A stretch of DNA of 58,174 nucleotides from a candidate division NPL-UPA2 bacterium Unc8 (GTDB lineage: Bacteria; NPL-UPA2): positions 1 through 58,174 of the forward strand of contig NDHY01000006.1 in assembly GCA_003574845.1 (NCBI GenBank), written 5' to 3'. Under the pieces are notes generated by a model that saw only the letters and a list, made by a program, of their open reading frames with translations, searched no databases and was not told where the DNA came from. Below, in pieces: positions 1,241-58,065 of this stretch. The position numbers and the translations under genes are program-made. The number at the start of each line of letters is the position of its first letter. Positions within the stretch are counted from its first letter, which is position 1.

Positions 1241-2230
1241 ATGAGACATATTATACAAAACTACAAGCATTATCCGGGCTATCATTGTGGTTCTTCAGGG
1301 CTCAGAAACCTCCTGAGTTACTGTGGATGTAACATAAGTGAAGATATGGTCATAGGTCTGGGTGAGGCTCCGTCTTTTTATTATTTTTCAGATCGTTCTT
1401 TTGACCCTGTCAAGATTATTCATACCAGATTTGGATTTTTTGAAGAAACTTTTATCAAGAACACCGGGCTTCCCTTCATGATTGAGTCCGGGTTAGAGAA
1501 TGCTGAATCGTGGCTTGCTGTAAAGGATTATATTAGAGTTGATATACCTGTAATGGCGAGGACAGATATTTTCTACCTCCCTTACTTTGATACAAAAGTT
1601 CATTTTAATGGGCATATAGTTGTTGTTTGGGGATTTGATGAAGAAAATAATGAGGTTTACCTTTCAGATACACTAAGACCGGAGGCTCAGACAGTCAGCA
1701 TAACCGACCTCATTCTGGCAAGTGCGAGTGAGACCCCGCCATATATGAAGAAAAATATAATCTTTACAATTAATAAAAGGATAAATAAAAGCGACATAGA
1801 CATAGTCAGGGTTGCTATCTCTGCCATCCGCTCGTGGGGAGAAAGGCATATTATGAGTGGTGTGGGCATTCAGTCCCTCAAAAATCTAAGAGAAGACCTT
1901 CCAGCGTGGGAAGATGTTGAATCAAGGTCGTGGTGCGAGAGATTTGCTTACCAGCAGATTGAAAAAAGAGGCACCGGAGGCGCTGCTTTTCGTATGCCCT
2001 ACTTAGGATTTTTAGAAGAGTTGAGAGCATACATAAAAGATGCTTCTCTTGATGAGGTTATAGGGCTTTTTTCAAAAAATGTCAAAGTCTGGCACCGACT
2101 CGCTGCTCTTTTTAAGGAAAAAAGTGAAGGCAACTTAAAGGATTATCTTGAGATTACCAGAGTTTTGGAGAATATAATAGAATTGGAGTCAAAAGCAGCA
2201 GAAGTCTGCCGTAATTTTAAAAGGAGGTGA
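1241..2230 (+). CDS. BtrH-like papain-fold (NlpC/P60-like) protein with DUF4872-type C-terminal domain
   Basis: N-terminal HCGSSGLRNLL (Cys), SEDMVIGLG, HFNGHIVVVWGFD (His) and C-terminal GTGGAAFR motif. Confidence 0.7.
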   Translation: MRHIIQNYKHYPGYHCGSSGLRNLLSYCGCNISEDMVIGLGEAPSFYYFSDRSFDPVKIIHTRFGFFEETFIKNTGLPFMIESGLENAESWLAVKDYIRVDIPVMARTDIFYLPYFDTKVHFNGHIVVVWGFDEENNEVYLSDTLRPEAQTVSITDLILASASETPPYMKKNIIFTINKRINKSDIDIVRVAISAIRSWGERHIMSGVGIQSLKNLREDLPAWEDVESRSWCERFAYQQIEKRGTGGAAFRMPYLGFLEELRAYIKDASLDEVIGLFSKNVKVWHRLAALFKEKSEGNLKDYLEITRVLENIIELESKAAEVCRNFKRR

Positions 2231-2237
2231 TTTTAAA

Positions 2238-2672
2238 GTGATAGACCCTAAATTTATAGGCAGGAAGTACTCTCCTATGACTTATGAGGTGTGTAAGGAG
2301 AAAATAAAGGAATATGCCCGGGCAGTGGGCGACTTGAATCCTCTCTATTTGGATGAGGAACAGGCTAAAAGTTCGCAGTATGGCAGGATTATTGCCCCTC
2401 CCCTTTTTGCAGCTATCTATGCCAGGGAAGTGCTGGAAAATTGGGTTCTTGATTCAGAGCTGTCTCTAAATCTGCCGATGATAGTTCATGGTGAGCAGGA
2501 GTTTGAGTTTTTTAAAGTAGTCAAAGCTGGAGATGTAATTGCTACTGAAGGACGTATAGCAGAAATCTATGAAAAGAAAGGGCTGAATTTTATATCGCTG
2601 GAGACTATTTCCATAAATCAACAGGGAGAGGTAGTTACCAGAGCAGTCTGGAGGATGGTTATCAGGAGGTAA
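2238..2672 (+). CDS. MaoC-like hotdog-fold dehydratase partner subunit (HadA/FAS1-dehydratase N-terminal type)
   Basis: KIKEYARAVGDLNPLY, APPLF and VHGEQEFEF motifs; AGGAGG RBS before GTG. Confidence 0.8.
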   Translation: MIDPKFIGRKYSPMTYEVCKEKIKEYARAVGDLNPLYLDEEQAKSSQYGRIIAPPLFAAIYAREVLENWVLDSELSLNLPMIVHGEQEFEFFKVVKAGDVIATEGRIAEIYEKKGLNFISLETISINQQGEVVTRAVWRMVIRR

Positions 2673-2675
2673 ACG

Positions 2676-3077
2676 ATGATTAAGACTAAGGATGTAAAGG
2701 TAGGTGACTCAATTCCCCCTTTGCGAAAGGATGTGGGAAAATATCAGCCGATACTCTATGCAGGAGCCTCGGGGGATTTTAATCCAATTCACATAGACCC
2801 GGAGTGGGGAAAAACCGTTGGTTTGGGAGGAAATATCCTGCATGGGCTCTGTACCATGGCATTTGTTTCTCAGATGAACATTGATTGGCTGGGAGACCCC
2901 GGCCGACTTAAAAAACTTAAGGTACGTTTTGTTAGCCCGGTAAAGCCGGAGGATACAATTACGATAGAAGGGAAGGTGGTCGGAAAAGAAGGAGATGCAA
3001 TTAAGTGCGAAATGTCGGTGAAAAATCAAGAGGGCACAGAAGTAATGATAAATGTAGCCTCTGAGGCAAAACTATGA
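2676..3077 (+). CDS. MaoC family (R)-specific enoyl-CoA hydratase/dehydratase, catalytic subunit
   Basis: Hydratase-2 motif YAGASGDFNPIHID and ILHGLCTM. Confidence 0.85.
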   Translation: MIKTKDVKVGDSIPPLRKDVGKYQPILYAGASGDFNPIHIDPEWGKTVGLGGNILHGLCTMAFVSQMNIDWLGDPGRLKKLKVRFVSPVKPEDTITIEGKVVGKEGDAIKCEMSVKNQEGTEVMINVASEAKL

Positions 3078-4253
3078 CCGCACCTTTAGAAGGAATTAAG
3101 ATTCTGGACCTGACGCGGCTGCTGCCTGGAGCATTCTGTTCAATGATATTAGCAGACTTAGGGGCAGATGTACTCAAGATTGAGGAGCCAGGGAGAGGGG
3201 ATTATGCAAGATGGCTTCCACCTTTTATAAAAAAAGAAAGTTCCAATTTCCTATCTATCAATCGCAACAAAAAAAGCATGATATTGGACCTGAAGCGCGA
3301 AAAGGGGAAAGAAATCTTTCTCAGGCTGGTTAAAGAGCATGATGTTGTTCTGGAAAGTTTCAGGCCAGGGACAATGGACCGTCTTGGGGTCGGCTATGGG
3401 GAGGCAAAAAAGATTAATCCCATGATTATCTTTTGTGCTATCTCTGGCTATGGCCAGGATGGTCCCTACAAAGATATGGTTGGGCATGATATAAACTATC
3501 TCGGAGTTGCCGGAATCCTGGGTATAACTGGTAGCTCTGATGGAACTCCTGTTATCCCTGGAGTGCAGATTGGAGATATCGGGGGTGGAAGCTTAATGGC
3601 AGCTATCGCTATTTTAGGAGCCATCGTTGCCCGGGAAAGAATAAAAAAGGGACAGTTTATTGATATATCTATGACAGATGGGGCTATTTCATGGTTATCC
3701 ATCCACGCTGGCAAATATTTCGCCGATAAGCTAATCCCAACACCGGGAAAGATGCTTTTGAGTGGAGAATTTCCTTGCTATCAAGTCTATCCCACTAAAG
3801 ACAAGAGGTATATCACCGTTGGTGCACTGGAGCCAAAATTCTGGCGGAATCTCTGCCTTGCCATAAGTAGAGAGGACTTGATAGTGCATCAATTTGCTGC
3901 TGGTGAGGAAGGAGAGGGAGTAACGAAGGAAATTCAAGATATCTTTCTTGCCAAAACCCAAAAGGAATGGCTGGAAACTTTTGAAGGGCTTGAGGTCTGT
4001 TGTGGTCCAGTCAATACTCTTGAGGAAGTCTTCTCTGATTCTCAATGTACTTCATCGGGAGATGCTTGCTGAGATTGAGCATCCCACTGAAGGAAAAATC
4101 AAACAGATTGGAATCCCGATGAAGTTTTCTGAAACCCCGGGCAGGATTAAAGCTCCACCCCCTGGTTTTGGTGAGCACACCGAGATGGTTCTTAAGACGC
4201 TAAAATTTACCAGGGAGGAAATTGAGAAATTAAAAGAGGAAAAAATTATATAA
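3074..4253 (+). pseudogene. CaiB/BaiF family III CoA-transferase, frameshifted
   Basis: LEGIKILDLTRLLPG, LADLGADVLKIE, NRNKKS and GHDINY motifs. The C-terminus (VLHREMLAEIEHP...PPPGFGEHT) continues in another frame after one extra base at about 4046 (CAA-T-GTA). Confidence 0.8.
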
Positions 4254-5421: not shown

Positions 5422-7854
5422 ATGAAGAGGAAAATAAGGAAAGTGGCAGTGCTTGGCGCAGGTGTGATGGGGAGTGGGATAGCTGCCCATCTGGCAAATG
5501 CAGACATTCCTACCTGTCTTTTGGACATTGTCCCGAAGGAACTTAGCGAAGAGGATGTGAAGAAAGGATTAACCAAGGAAAGCCCTGCCTTCAGGAACAA
5601 ATTTGCGTTAATGGGCATAGAGAATGCGCTAAAGGCAAGACCGGCCGCATTCTATGTGCCAGAAGATGCCAGGCTCATTACCCCGGGCAATTTTGACGAC
5701 CATATGCACTGGTTGCAAGAAGCGGATTGGATTATTGAAGTGGTAATGGAGAATCTGGAGATAAAGAAGGGGTTATTCAAAAAAGTTGAAGAGGTCAGGA
5801 AACCAGGAGCTATTGTTAGCACTAATACCTTAGGAATATCAATAGATGCGATGTCCGAGGAATTATCAGAGGAGTTCAGAGAGCATTTTTTGGGAACCCA
5901 TTTTTTCAACCCACCAAGGTATATGAGGCTCATTGAGCTCATTGAAGGAAAATCTACTAAGAAAGAGATATTGTCCTTTATGACAGACTTCTGCGAATGG
6001 AGACTGGGTAAGGGGGTTGTCTTTGCTAAAGATACTCCAAACTTTATTGCCAATAGAATTGGTGCCTATGGCATAATAACAGTTATGAGAACTATGGTAG
6101 AAGATGGTTATACCGTAGAAGAAGTTGATGCGATAACAGGTCCTGCCATGGGAAGGCCAAAGAGTGCAACTTTTAGAACAGCCGACCTTGTTGGTCTGGA
6201 TGTTTTTGCTCATGTAGCAAAGAATGTATATGACAACATAGAAGATGAAAATGAAAAAAAAGAATTCGTCGTTCCAGAACTTATAACCAAGATGGTGGAA
6301 ATGGGTCTTCTTGGTGAGAAGGTAAAGCAGGGATTTTACAAAAAGGTAAAAACAGAAGAAGGTTCTGAAATATATTCACTGGACTACAATACTATGGATT
6401 ATATTCCGTGCAGGAAAGTAGATTTTCCTTCTCTTAAGGATATCAAGCGGATGGAAGGACTTGCAAAGAAATTAAAGACTCTGGTTTACTGCGAAGATAG
6501 AGCGGGTCAGTTTGCCTGGAAGGTAATGAAAGATGTGCTGCTTTACAGTGCCAGGAGAATTCCTGAGATAGCAGATGACATATTAAAAATAGATGAAGCT
6601 ATGAAATGGGGATTCAACTGGGAGCTTGGTCCCTTTGCAACCTGGGATGCCATAGGCGTCAAAGAATCTGTTGAGAGAATGGAGAAAGAAGGGGAAGAAA
6701 TACCGGAAAATGTAAAACAGATGCTCCTCTCGGGAAAGGAGCGATTCTACGAAAAGAAAGATGGGAAATCCTGTTACTTTGACTTTAAGAAATCAGACTA
6801 TGAGGAGATTGAAGAAAAGTCACAAATTATTATTCTTCCTTCCCTGAAAGAAAGAGAAAAACTGATTAAGTCCAATTCTGAGGCAAGCTTAATTGATCTG
6901 GGAGACGGAGTTGCCTGCCTGGAATTCCATTCTCCAATAAATTCCATTGGAGCTGAGTTGACTGATATGATGAGCTACAGTGTAGGAGAGGTAGAGGAGA
7001 ACTTTGAAGGACTCCTTATCGGCAACCATGGCCGCAACTTCTGTGTGGGAGCAAATTTAATGCTTCTTCTTATGGGAGCCCAAAGTCAACAGTGGGAGCA
7101 AATACGATTTATGGTGCAACAACTTCAGGGCGCTCTCATGCGGCTCAAGTGATCAGAAAAACCGGTAGTGGCAGCTCCATCCGGCATGGCATTAGGCGGC
7201 GGATGTGAAATTTGCATGGCTGCCGGCAAGGTAAGAGCTTATGCTGAATCCTACATAGGACTGGTAGAGGTGGGAGTAGGGCTCATTCCTGCCGCGGGCG
7301 GCTGCAAGGAGTTGCTTCTAAGAAACATTGAATGGGCGCCTCTTGCAGTTCCCAGCGCATCTCCTGCGGGAATCCCACCTGACCTTATTCCCTATGTAGC
7401 GAGAGCCTTTGAAACTATCGCTATGGCAAAAGTGGCTACAAGCGCCAGGGATGCTCAGAGATTATGGTATCTAAGACAGCAGGATAAGTGGACAATGAAT
7501 CAGGATTACTTTCTGCACGATGCTAAAGAGACAGTGCTTGCTATGGTGAAGGAAGGATACCGTCCGTATCGGCCCAAAGATGATATCAGGATAACAAGCA
7601 GAACAGGCAGAGCGCTCCTTGAGCTCTCAATCTACACGATGAAAGAGGGGAGATATATATCTGACTATGATGCCCACATTGCCAAAAAACTCGCCTATGT
7701 ATTAACCGGCGGAGATTTGGACAAAAATACCCTGGTAAGCGAGAAATATCTATTGGAACTTGAAATGGAGGTGTTTATCTCGCTCTGTGGAGAGAAGAAG
7801 TCTCAGGACAGGATGAAGCATATATTACAGACCAACAAACCATTGAGGAATTAA
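5422..7854 (+). pseudogene. fadN: 3-hydroxyacyl-CoA dehydrogenase/enoyl-CoA hydratase (FadN-like), in-frame TGA at 7150-7152
   Basis: GAGVMGSGIA, THFFNPPRYM, KDTPNFIANRIG, then a crotonase domain (FCVGANL, ALGGGCE, GLVEVGVGLIP). ORFs 5422-7152 and 7168-7854 are in the same frame (RLK*SEKPVVAAP). Confidence 0.85.
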
Positions 7855-55464: not shown

Positions 55465-55672
55465 GATTTCAATAGAAGAATTACGGAAAAAAGTCGGGAG
55501 TGTTTATAAATTGGTTAATCTTGCCGCTATGAGAGCAAGGGATTTGAATGATGGTGCACCCAAATTGGTGAATATAGACACAAAAAACACAATTCTCATC
55601 GCTCTAACAGAGATCGCCGAAGAAAAGATCAGATGCAAAAAAGAAGATGCAGACAAAGAATCCGTTATTTAA
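55454..55672 (+). CDS. rpoZ: RNA polymerase omega subunit
   Basis: SVYKLVNLAAMRARDL and ALTEIAE motifs; yicC-rpoZ-coaBC context. Confidence 0.9.
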   Translation: MLNEISIEELRKKVGSVYKLVNLAAMRARDLNDGAPKLVNIDTKNTILIALTEIAEEKIRCKKEDADKESVI

Positions 55673-56210
55673 AGAAAAGGAGATTATCCTTGGGGTAACC
55701 GGGAGCATTGCTGCATACAAGGTGGCAGAGCTCATCGGTGCACTGAAGAAGGAAGAAGCGGAAGTTACCGTCATGATGACCGAATCCGCAAAGAGATTTA
55801 TCACTCCGCTTACTTTAAGGACAATTTCTAAAAATTATGTCTACCATTCACTTTTTACTGAGGAGTGGAACATCTCGCATATTTCCCTTGCCACTAAAGG
55901 AGACCTTATCCTCATTGCTCCGGCAACAGCAAATATTATTGCAAAACTCGCCGCTGGATTTGCTGATGACCTGCTTACCGCTGTTTGTTTGTCAACGAAG
56001 GCTCCAATATTGATTGCCCCGGCAATGAATTCTCAGATGTACGCCAACCCTATCTTGCAGGAAAACATAAAAAAGCTGAAAAAATCAGGCTATCGGATTA
56101 TTCCCCCCGTCTCAGGCACTCTTGCCTGCGGTGAAATCGGTGAGGGGCGATTGGCATCTATTGAGGCTATCCTCAAGGAAATCAAGAGAACCTTTGAGAA
56201 ATCCCATTAA
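55647..56210 (+). CDS. coaC: Phosphopantothenoylcysteine decarboxylase (stand-alone)
   Basis: GVTGSIAAYK, APATANIIAK, PAMN and LACG motifs. Confidence 0.9.
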   Translation: MQTKNPLFKEKEIILGVTGSIAAYKVAELIGALKKEEAEVTVMMTESAKRFITPLTLRTISKNYVYHSLFTEEWNISHISLATKGDLILIAPATANIIAKLAAGFADDLLTAVCLSTKAPILIAPAMNSQMYANPILQENIKKLKKSGYRIIPPVSGTLACGEIGEGRLASIEAILKEIKRTFEKSH

Positions 56211-56224
56211 AATTAGATTTCAGG

Positions 56225-56887
56225 ATGAAAAGCAAGAAAGGAATGTTGGCAGGCAAGAAACTGCTCATTACCGCTGGTCCAACTGAGGAACCAATAGACC
56301 CGGTGCGCTTCATCTCTAACCGCTCTACGGGAAGGATGGGATACCTCCTGGCATCATCTGCTCATCAGGAAGGAGCAATAGTTACTCTTATCAGTGGACC
56401 CACTCATCTTTCTCCTCTACAAGAAATCAAAGAGTATATCTCGGTCAGAACGGCTCTTGAGATGAGAGAAGAAGTGCTGAAAAGAATTAAGGCTTGTGAT
56501 GTCCTCATTATGGCTGCTGCTCCATCTGACTACAGACCTCGGCATTACTCAGCTAAAAAAATAAAGGGGAAGAAGAAAACCGCTTCCATTGAGCTTTTCC
56601 CCAATCCGGACATCCTGAAAGAAGTGGGAGAAAAAAAGAGAAAAAAGATGGTTGTTGTCGGATTTGCCGCCGAAACGGATAATCTAATTAACAATGCCCG
56701 CAGAAAACTTAAAGAGAAAAACCTTGATTTCATCATTGCCAATCGGATTGATATCAACGGAGCAGGATTTGGCACCGCTACCACCGAAGTAAAGATTATC
56801 ACAAAAGAAAAAACAGAAATCCTTGACGGCATCAGTAAAGAAGAACTTTCCTCCATCATCCTCAAAAAATTGGGTGGTGAAGGCTGA
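56225..56887 (+). CDS. coaB: Phosphopantothenate--cysteine ligase (stand-alone)
   Basis: TAGPTEEPIDPVRFISNRSTGRMG, AAAPSDY and GFAAET motifs. Confidence 0.9.
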   Translation: MKSKKGMLAGKKLLITAGPTEEPIDPVRFISNRSTGRMGYLLASSAHQEGAIVTLISGPTHLSPLQEIKEYISVRTALEMREEVLKRIKACDVLIMAAAPSDYRPRHYSAKKIKGKKKTASIELFPNPDILKEVGEKKRKKMVVVGFAAETDNLINNARRKLKEKNLDFIIANRIDINGAGFGTATTEVKIITKEKTEILDGISKEELSSIILKKLGGEG

Positions 56888-56918
56888 AGGCTGAAGACTG
56901 TTAGACTGTTAGACTGTT
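56878..56918. repeat. Heptamer array, (GAAGGCT)2 then (GACTGTT/A)3
   Basis: Contains the dispersed 20-mer also found at 18879 and 43078. Confidence 0.8.
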
Positions 56919-56919
56919 C

Positions 56920-56941
56920 GTAGCGGTCGGATTTATCCGAC
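56920..56941 (+). repeat. REP-like hairpin with GTAG foot
   Basis: GTAG-CG-GTCGGAT-TT-ATCCGAC. Confidence 0.55.
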
Positions 56942-56961
56942 TCTTGAAATCACAAATTCCC

Positions 56962-56993
56962 GTTTCAATCCACGCCCCCGCACGGGGGGCGAC
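56962..56993 (-). CRISPR. Solitary type I-C-like CRISPR repeat (32 nt)
   Basis: Minus strand reads GTCGCCCCCCGTGCGGGGGCGTGGATTGAAAC: GTCGC start, hairpin, ATTGAAAC end. Single copy; no cas genes in the window. Confidence 0.8.
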
Positions 56994-57023
56994 TGTTACA
57001 GACATCATAGCCTTCACGCGCAG

Positions 57024-57051
57024 GAGTTCCCCACACATGTGGGGATGGACC
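57024..57051 (+). CRISPR. Solitary type I-E-like CRISPR repeat (28 nt)
   Basis: GAGTTCCCCACACATGTGGGGATGGACC fits the G(A/T)GTTCCCC-hairpin-GGGGAT-NN-ACC(G) pattern; single copy. Confidence 0.75.
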
Positions 57052-57336
57052 TTAATTAGACACCCTGATAAAACTTATCATGAAAAGGGGGTTGATGTTC
57101 GTTTGTCTGTAGAGATGATTAGATTTGCTCGAGAAAATAAATACAATATTGCTTATTTGGTGAGTTCTGACACAGATTTGGTGGCAGCAGTAGAAGAAGT
57201 TCGGTCAATCGGAAAAACCATTCAATATGTCGGCATTCCTAAGGGACAGTCATATGGGCTTTCAAGTGTTGCTAATAATGTTAGATTATTAAGGCTGGAA
57301 GAAATAGAAAAATTTTTTCCTGAAACAAAAAATTAA
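57052..57336 (+). pseudogene. NYN (PIN-like/LabA) domain gene, 5'-truncated
   Basis: EKGVDV..MI, YLVSSDTDL and GKTIQYVG motifs are present; the N-terminal DGxN half is absent and replaced by repeats. Confidence 0.75.
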
Positions 57337-57343
57337 GAACCAA

Positions 57344-57559
57344 ATGATGAAGGGATTTATCTTATTTGAATTATATTTAAAAATTGCTTTAATTCTTTCG
57401 ATTGTCTTTTTTCCTATGGCAGTTTTAAAGCTATGGAGAGAATTTCCTCAAATAGCTTTAGTTGTAGGAATTTGGGGTGGAATCACTATTTTTATTATTT
57501 ATTGGCTTGGCCCCAAATTGATAAAAGAATTGAAAAAAGGAGATGATGAAAATGGCTAA
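57344..57559 (+). CDS. Small hypothetical membrane protein (2 TM)
   Basis: Hydrophobic ORF in AT-rich DNA, co-oriented and overlapping the next ORF. Confidence 0.5.
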   Translation: MMKGFILFELYLKIALILSIVFFPMAVLKLWREFPQIALVVGIWGGITIFIIYWLGPKLIKELKKGDDENG

Positions 57560-57770
57560 ACTATCTAAAAACCCCCTTTATTGCTTGCTAATTTTAACTT
57601 ATTGCTTGCTTTCAGCTATGACAGTTGGTATGCTATTGACTATTATTGTTGAACTTGAAGACCCCAAAGATCCCATGGTAGTTTTAATTCTTATAGGATC
57701 TATAATTTTTCTTATATTTTTTGCTTATTGGGTTTGCAAAAAACTAATAGAAGAATCGAAAGAACCCTAA
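57543..57770 (+). CDS. Small hypothetical membrane protein (2 TM)
   Basis: Two hydrophobic segments; AGGAGA RBS before ATG at about 57552. Confidence 0.5.
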   Translation: MMKMAKLSKNPLYCLLILTYCLLSAMTVGMLLTIIVELEDPKDPMVVLILIGSIIFLIFFAYWVCKKLIEESKEP

Positions 57771-57819
57771 CTGTTTTTTAATTATGAAAGAAAAAGTTAA
57801 GAAAAAGATTTAATTCAAT

Positions 57820-58065
57820 ATGGGAAATTTAATCATTGGCTTTATCTTGGTAACTGCTGGATTTATTATTGTTCGGATGGCACACCAACCTGCCACGAAA
57901 CGACCTCTATTGTTTAATTCAGTAGTTTTGACTTCTATAATACCCACTATCTTGATTATTGGAGGATTATATTTATGTTTTATGGTGCAATGGTATTTTG
58001 CTATTATTGTTTTTTTTACAGCACCACTTGTTGCAGAAATTATCCGGAAATTAATTTGGCATTAA
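57820..58065 (+). CDS. Small hypothetical membrane protein (2-3 TM)
   Basis: Hydrophobic ORF in AT-rich DNA. Confidence 0.5.
   Translation: MGNLIIGFILVTAGFIIVRMAHQPATKRPLLFNSVVLTSIIPTILIIGGLYLCFMVQWYFAIIVFFTAPLVAEIIRKLIWH

Follow-up and report, generated by a model that had tools for sequence, protein, structure and literature searches.

Close to the right-hand end of a bacterial contig, two complete CRISPR repeats of different subtypes, I-C and I-E, lie back to back with 30 nt between them. Is such a pair a locus for decoy or regulatory RNA, the product of recombination between two arrays, or an assembly chimera? These three readings were offered in a preliminary description made from the sequence alone, and we examined them using metagenome contigs, related genomes and sequence searches.

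Two genuine repeats on either side of one linker

The window, the whole 58,174-nt stretch of DNA analysed here, is the entire contig C21 of a 996-kb, 24-contig bin (G000; 94.67% complete) from an organism with a GC level of 44%. No overlaps able to extend C21 were found among the contig ends. The features around the repeat pair are as follows.

56225-56887, + strand: coaB-like gene (DFP C-terminal domain; Pfam PF04127, E=2.7e-70), the last conserved gene
56879-56918, no strand: 7-/8-base tandem repeats read directly from the sequence, with units GAAGGCT, GAAGACT and GTTAGACT
56920-56941, + strand: REP-like element, GTAG followed by a 7-bp hairpin, with an exact 22-nt recurrence in relatives
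56962-56993, - strand: complete 32-nt type I-C repeat in single copy (sequence search, fold, exact matches in GTDB genomes)
56994-57023, no strand: linker, likely a spacer remnant, lying 5′ of both repeats and unique in G000
57024-57051, + strand: 28-nt type I-E repeat, the joint common to the haplotypes (sequence search, fold, comparison with the loci L028 and L034 and contig C5)
57052-57336, + strand: 3′ half of an NYN-domain gene (Pfam PF01936), a pseudogene of foreign composition
57344-57559, 57543-57770 and 57820-58065, + strand: three small hydrophobic ORFs in 30%-GC DNA (ORF reading, composition)

Sequence search confirmed both repeats and the 30-mer between them, with the positions and sequences of the repeats as first described, and both are genuine repeat types; none of 100 shuffles yielded either repeat at ≤3 mismatches. 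The 5′ end of each repeat faces the 30-mer, so the two point away from each other, and their divergent orientation is borne out. Where an ordinary array would have at least two repeat copies in one orientation together with spacers, the window holds one copy of each repeat. A working array is excluded by this geometry, because the 30-mer lies upstream of both repeats and neither strand gives a guide with both handles. No terminator-like site adjoining the repeats was found in a scan of the window. Two of the 20 periodic clusters listed in G000 were inspected; a 66-nt periodic repeat on contig C11 was rejected as a CRISPR candidate and reads as coding tandem repeats.

The I-C repeat has exact 32/32 counterparts in 108 stretches of GTDB species genomes; many phyla are represented, the longest array numbers 92 copies, and a 9-copy array at 1 mismatch is present in a further genome (G037). 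It is predicted to fold into a 7-bp stem with a 5-nt loop (-15.1 kcal/mol), followed by an 11-nt tail ending in ATTGAAAC, in keeping with type I-C hairpins. The Rfam family CRISPR-DR9 matches it weakly (23 bits, below the threshold of 45). A single I-C copy (counted at ≤7 mismatches) occurs in 12 of the 108 exact-repeat loci, several of the 12 being cut by contig ends.

The I-E repeat, which has no match in Rfam, is predicted to form a 7-bp stem with a 4-nt loop. It occurs twice in the sibling haplotype L028, at 871 and 932, which gives the 61-nt period that, with a length of 28-29 nt and this stem and loop, characterises I-E repeats. It shares 21/29 positions with the repeats of L034, a locus encoding Cas7e, Cas5, Cas6e, Cas1 and Cas2, and thus resembles repeats that adjoin I-E cas genes; at stem position 10/17 the window and L034 differ on both sides with pairing kept, a compensatory change. 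The 29th base, directly after the repeat, is T in the window, G or A in L028 and A on C5. As to whether such sequences belong to known families, the I-C repeat matches real arrays and the I-E type is seen in arrays too.

A second copy of the I-E repeat, differing by 2 mismatches that both fall in the loop, is found on contig C5, 25 nt short of the contig end, where it adjoins mraZ and rsmH; the claim that each repeat is single-copy is thus correct within the window and fails for the I-E repeat in G000 as a whole. No link between coaB and mraZ was found in relatives, the two genes being on different contigs in four of five genomes, those in which both were placed, and the C5 repeat is therefore not assignable to the same array as the window repeat. 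Units of GTAG plus hairpin also occur near the C5 end and at ~3420 on contig C12.

Spacers measure 33-37 nt in I-C arrays and 32-33 nt in I-E arrays, so the 30-nt linker falls 2-7 nt short of a spacer of either type. Its uniqueness was upheld, no match >11 nt being found elsewhere in G000. It is absent as a spacer from all 108 I-C loci and has no exact match in viral contigs; the look-up in spacer and phage sets that the preliminary description proposed, made with the 30-mer and the right flank, gave no matches. The 30-mer is likely the remainder of a spacer.

Independent contigs across the junction

Six groundwater-metagenome runs from two studies contain the stretch, and four of them (X1-X4) were compared as independent k=31 contigs. 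A 92-nt contig of X1 and a 91-nt contig of X2 cover exactly 56962-57052, unbranched and without differences, the former with one unaligned letter at its I-C end. Their depths (20.5 in X1 and 22.7 in X2) stand beside 24.3 and 19.7 on the coaB side and 16.8 and 18.2 on the NYN side. A separate metagenome assembly (L029) contains the full arrangement, with 9 SNPs relative to the window, all left of 56348. A chimera at k=31 needs a shared 30-mer and branching, and the core contig does not branch; the proposal of an assembly chimera is therefore refuted for the core of repeat, 30-mer and repeat, and the outcome that would have spoken for it, a junction that nothing spans, did not occur there.

Further to the left, no contig linking 56901-56961 to the 30-mer is among the listed contigs of X1-X4, so the path from coaB through the trailer and the I-C repeat to the 30-mer comes from the two assemblies, and this leftward link through the I-C repeat may be chimeric. 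X2 has no contig over 56883-56948; cover gaps of this kind carry no evidential weight. The I-C repeat is a hub in the metagenome samples, where its summed depth is 16,500-136,000 and dozens of repeat-spacer-repeat contigs have a depth of 80-425 with 33-37 letters between copies.

Native-looking DNA to the left, compositionally foreign DNA to the right

The tandem-repeat tract that follows coaB contains its stop codon. Units similar to those of the tract are found elsewhere in G000, and the tract is the genome's own intergenic signature. The 22 nt of the adjacent GTAG and hairpin unit recur exactly in intergenic DNA of two genomes of the same phylum (G008 and G010); the unit resembles REP elements and may be of that kind. 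No proteins starting like the ORF at 56944 were found. The 3′ side of the I-C repeat faces this native-looking trailer, and the repeat therefore occupies the position of a terminal repeat, beside intergenic sequence that is native-looking for G000. The usual fused coaBC is split in the window into two ORFs (55647-56210 and 56225-56887), and the C-terminus of the second differs among the three haplotypes or species compared.

On the other side, homology to NYN proteins starts at 57052, the first base after the I-E repeat. The fragment is 88-89% identical to residues ~93-184 of 186-aa proteins and matches profile positions 68-140 of 145 in PF01936, the C-terminal half; the N-terminal half is absent from G000. 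Its nearest named relatives come from Patescibacteria and Bathyarchaeia, and among 41 genomes the best match outside G000 has 44% identity. GC drops from ~0.45 to 0.30 at 57050. GC3 is 0.23-0.27 in four right-flank ORFs (0.23 in the NYN fragment), below that of 99.6-99.8% of the 818 long ORFs of G000. To the right of the I-E repeat the sequence is of foreign composition and starts midway through the NYN gene. Searches for the right flank in 12 relatives and among phages, plasmids and viral contigs gave no match.

The low-GC tail is 1.1 kb long. In X1-X3 a deletion variant joins 57372 to 57775 (57373-57774 missing, 402 bp). The deletion removes two small membrane ORFs, and imperfect inverted repeats lie at its ends (57375-57403 and 57754-57782). 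The depth ratio of right to left flank is 0.69, 0.92, 0.51 and 0 in the four runs, and since it varies between runs the right side may belong to another replicon. Fifteen of the 1957 1-kb windows of G000 have <33% GC, seven of them at or close to the ends of contigs (C20 left, C21 right, C24 right), and assembly seems to break in low-GC accessory DNA.

A hypervariable site after coaB

The site directly after coaB is strain-variable and indeed hypervariable. L028 matches positions 56065-56882 of the window at 99.5% identity and then departs, so that haplotype divergence begins after 56882, within the final codons of coaB. There L028 has 52 nt, an I-E repeat, a 32-33-nt spacer and a second I-E repeat, and the genes beyond this I-E mini-array are absent from G000. 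The 52-nt segment is unrelated to the 142 nt of the window, 240 of 500 shuffles scoring equally well. GC in L028 reaches 58-60% at 2100-3562, and compared with the 44% of the organism the DNA there also looks foreign.

This second route, from coaB through the 52 nt to the I-E repeat, is also that of the long coaB contigs in X2, X3 and X4, where 56882 connects to 57025. The X4 contig continues with the spacer and the second repeat, stopping 61 nt past the first, and there is no cover from X4 over 57095-57532. The coaB contig of X3 stops precisely where the I-E repeat stops, and a different contig, beginning 3 letters ahead of that repeat, extends into the NYN fragment. Read most simply, these contig ends would give a third haplotype in X3 that runs from coaB through the 52 nt and one I-E repeat into NYN. 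The only sequence common to the haplotypes at the site (at least two, probably three) is the I-E repeat, which places the exchange at that repeat. Branching directly after the leader-side I-E repeat in X2 and X3 hints that an I-E array may still be active there with varying spacers, in which case a cas operon may lie outside the bin. Neither repeat was found after coaB in G001, a genome of the same genus.

Searches for cas genes, promoters and mobile elements

No Cas1, Cas3-HD, Cas5, Cas6e or Cas7e was found in G000; on the I-C side the search covered Cas3-HD, Cas5 and Cas1. The profiles PF08798 and PF09344 gave no match in G000 and also missed the E. coli control; tblastn with five I-E Cas proteins of L034 was therefore added, and its best hit had E=0.58. 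In four other genomes Cas8c (PF09709) had no match, and as the control genomes likewise gave none, this result was left out of the evidence. The initial claim that cas genes are lacking thus holds for the 94.67%-complete bin, to which it is confined, and the search for I-C and I-E cas loci suggested in the preliminary description found none there.

A consensus scan, a weak test, found no promoter-like site adjoining either repeat. Viral, phage or plasmid carriage of either repeat was not found, and no phage or plasmid genes are present. Set against known RNA anti-CRISPRs (Racrs), the bin has no cas operon of matching subtype, and the flank is foreign in composition and without match in phages, plasmids or viral contigs. 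Set against CreA and crlRNAs, in which two repeat-like arms of one type and one orientation enclose a guide with a partial promoter match, the arms are of different types and divergent, and the guide has no match >11 nt in G000.

Lone and paired repeats in other genomes

The preliminary description had proposed a search for mixed-subtype pairs elsewhere, and one was found, with the same two types. In L034 (an FCPU426 MAG; G042:C186), one of the 12 single-copy I-C loci and part of a genome unrelated to G000, an I-C leader-like motif, an I-C repeat, 31 nt and an I-E repeat follow one another in one direction at 6991-7082. The pair is separated by 930 nt from a complete I-E locus, the array of which ends in a degenerate repeat of its own. 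It sits between two paralogous four-helix-bundle genes (23S_rRNA_IVP), and a TTCGCGGA motif ~50 nt upstream of the I-C repeat is common to L039 and L104. Weaker I-E look-alikes occur near a lone I-C repeat at 33 nt in L089 and at 12 nt in L065, and in L088 one is 390 nt away from where an I-C array ends. A pattern search for the 3′ end of an I-C repeat with an I-E hairpin after it came up empty in 401 genomes (a sample of one phylum), which argues that such pairs are rare. At the level of literature listings no description of lone I-C/I-E pairs was found, and the solitary-repeat tables of PMC10651486 may contain paired cases.

A lone I-C-like repeat in G002, a genome of the same order (L019 107-308; G002:C6), adjoins the N-terminus of cas3, of which the first ~58 codons are left. 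The best match of a 43-residue stretch is the Cas3 HD N-terminus (TIGR01596, E=6.5e-8, model positions 1-45), the stump is frameshifted within a run of eight A, and tandem heptamers lie on the trailer side of the repeat. This fusion looks like the deletion scar of a lost I-C locus.

Origin of the repeat pair

Our best reading is that the repeat pair is real DNA and not a dedicated gene. Tentatively, and giving it a little less than an even chance, we take it for an inert recombination scar that joins the end-units of two CRISPR arrays at the strain-variable site after coaB. Recombination between arrays is the best fit of the three readings offered at the outset and is partly supported, by an I-E repeat that is the sole sequence common to the haplotypes, by the short linker and by foreign DNA that starts from the repeat edge. 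The I-C/I-E join and the repeat/NYN join would both have arisen through recombination precise at repeat edges, the site would be a hot spot with CRISPR repeats as breakpoints, and the repeat unit, without cas genes and promoter, would be inert. Candidate routes of joining are spacer-target homology, repeat-to-repeat homology and aberrant integrase action; the short linker, the completeness of both repeats and the truncation of a gene right at the edge of a repeat suggest that joining was guided by homology or by integrase chemistry. Some of this also counts against a scar, since precise edges and a spacer-like 30-nt gap are more orderly than random deletion predicts, and the 31-nt gap between the same repeat types in an unrelated genome speaks in the same direction. 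Also counting against it are the missing contig link from 56901-56961 to the 30-mer, the flank depth ratio that varies between runs and the branching in X2 and X3.

Partial mis-assembly, in which the 91-nt unit and the low-GC tail of another replicon or organism were threaded to the coaB contig through the I-C repeat, we regard as unlikely, with a chance that is by no means negligible. The extreme abundance of the I-C repeat in the samples would make such threading easier to credit, and the tail is short, compositionally foreign, absent from the 12 relatives searched and nearest, among named relatives, to Patescibacteria and Bathyarchaeia; in X2, moreover, the depth of the 91-mer is similar to that of the full-depth coaB contig although the latter enters the other haplotype. 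Against mis-assembly, two assemblies that differ in SNP background arrive at one path, the DNA left of the I-C repeat bears the repeat signature of the genome itself, and the X3 contigs fit together and, judging from their ends, would link NYN to coaB while bypassing the I-C repeat.

The dual decoy or regulatory RNA locus first envisaged gained no positive support from the promoter scan, the cas searches in the bin or the viral and plasmid comparisons. Single repeats that mimic known subtypes are proven to act in phages as anti-CRISPR RNAs (PMC10651486), and a functional mobile-element cassette, whose repeats would divert Cas5d and Cas6e as RNA decoys or provide homology arms for recombination into I-C or I-E arrays of the hosts, would accord with two intact repeats with canonical hairpins, a foreign and strain-variable flank whose depth is unlike that of the chromosome, haplotype exchange exactly at the I-E repeat and the presence of both repeat types in the community. 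We nevertheless judge it distinctly unlikely, given that the scan saw no promoter-like site beside the repeats, that repeats, 30-mer and flank match no viral contigs, phages or plasmids, and that phage and plasmid genes are absent; the bin is also without cas genes, whereas 83% of the solitary repeats reported in PMC10651486 match a host cas operon. Here the I-E repeat halves a gene, which looks accidental, and the pattern of I-C 3′ end and I-E hairpin did not occur in the sample of 401 genomes. There is a slim chance that the low-GC tail is part of a mobile element and carries a two-headed I-C/I-E cassette that docks in either array type through repeat homology and whose transcripts soak up Cas5d and Cas6e; the haplotype of coaB, I-E repeat and NYN would then be a docking event. 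A hybrid mini-array or crRNA-like regulator, its guide lying between the two repeats and loaded into Cascade, is hardly credible: the gap is spacer-sized, and the L034 pair does lie close to a complete I-E locus and behind an I-C leader-like motif, but the two repeat types diverge, neither strand combines a 5′ handle with a 3′ hairpin, the 30-mer lacks any match >11 nt elsewhere in G000 and the bin has no cas genes.

If the recombination scar is the true explanation, the locus would illustrate clearly, from nature, how CRISPR repeats act as breakpoints when a very small genome gains and loses accessory DNA, and it would also caution that lone repeats found in metagenome bins should be checked at the level of reads. 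The precision at the repeat edges and the spacer-sized gaps, 30 nt here and 31 nt in the unrelated genome, point to a joining process specific to repeat edges, which is directly testable.

Comparison with known systems

Intact repeats without cas genes are also a feature of orphan or degenerate arrays and of the lone terminal repeats that remain when CRISPR-Cas loci are lost, and the I-C repeat of the window is likewise terminal beside a trailer; the relative G002 shows a comparable lone repeat fused to a cas3 stump. The window differs from them in that two subtypes stand head-to-head through one linker of spacer length and that foreign DNA starts exactly at a repeat edge. In staphylococcal phages, mobile elements reportedly recombine with CRISPR arrays through homology to a spacer or a repeat. 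Recombination of that type would give a junction at a repeat edge, as at 57051/57052, and an exchange of haplotypes at the repeat; no matching spacer, second junction or phage was seen in the data for the window.

Racrs, as PMC10651486 presents them, are similar in being single, intergenic repeats that mimic a subtype and have no associated cas genes. The window differs from them in pairing two subtypes, in having one repeat that truncates a gene and in being without a recognisable virus or plasmid, a promoter or cognate cas genes in the bin. Recombination of arrays is treated in PMC4524480. For Pyrobaculum, PMC3396285 describes different repeat variants side by side in one array and attributes them to recombination or to copying from another array. 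Those are variants of one type within a working array, whereas the window joins two subtypes, in opposite orientation and with one copy of each.
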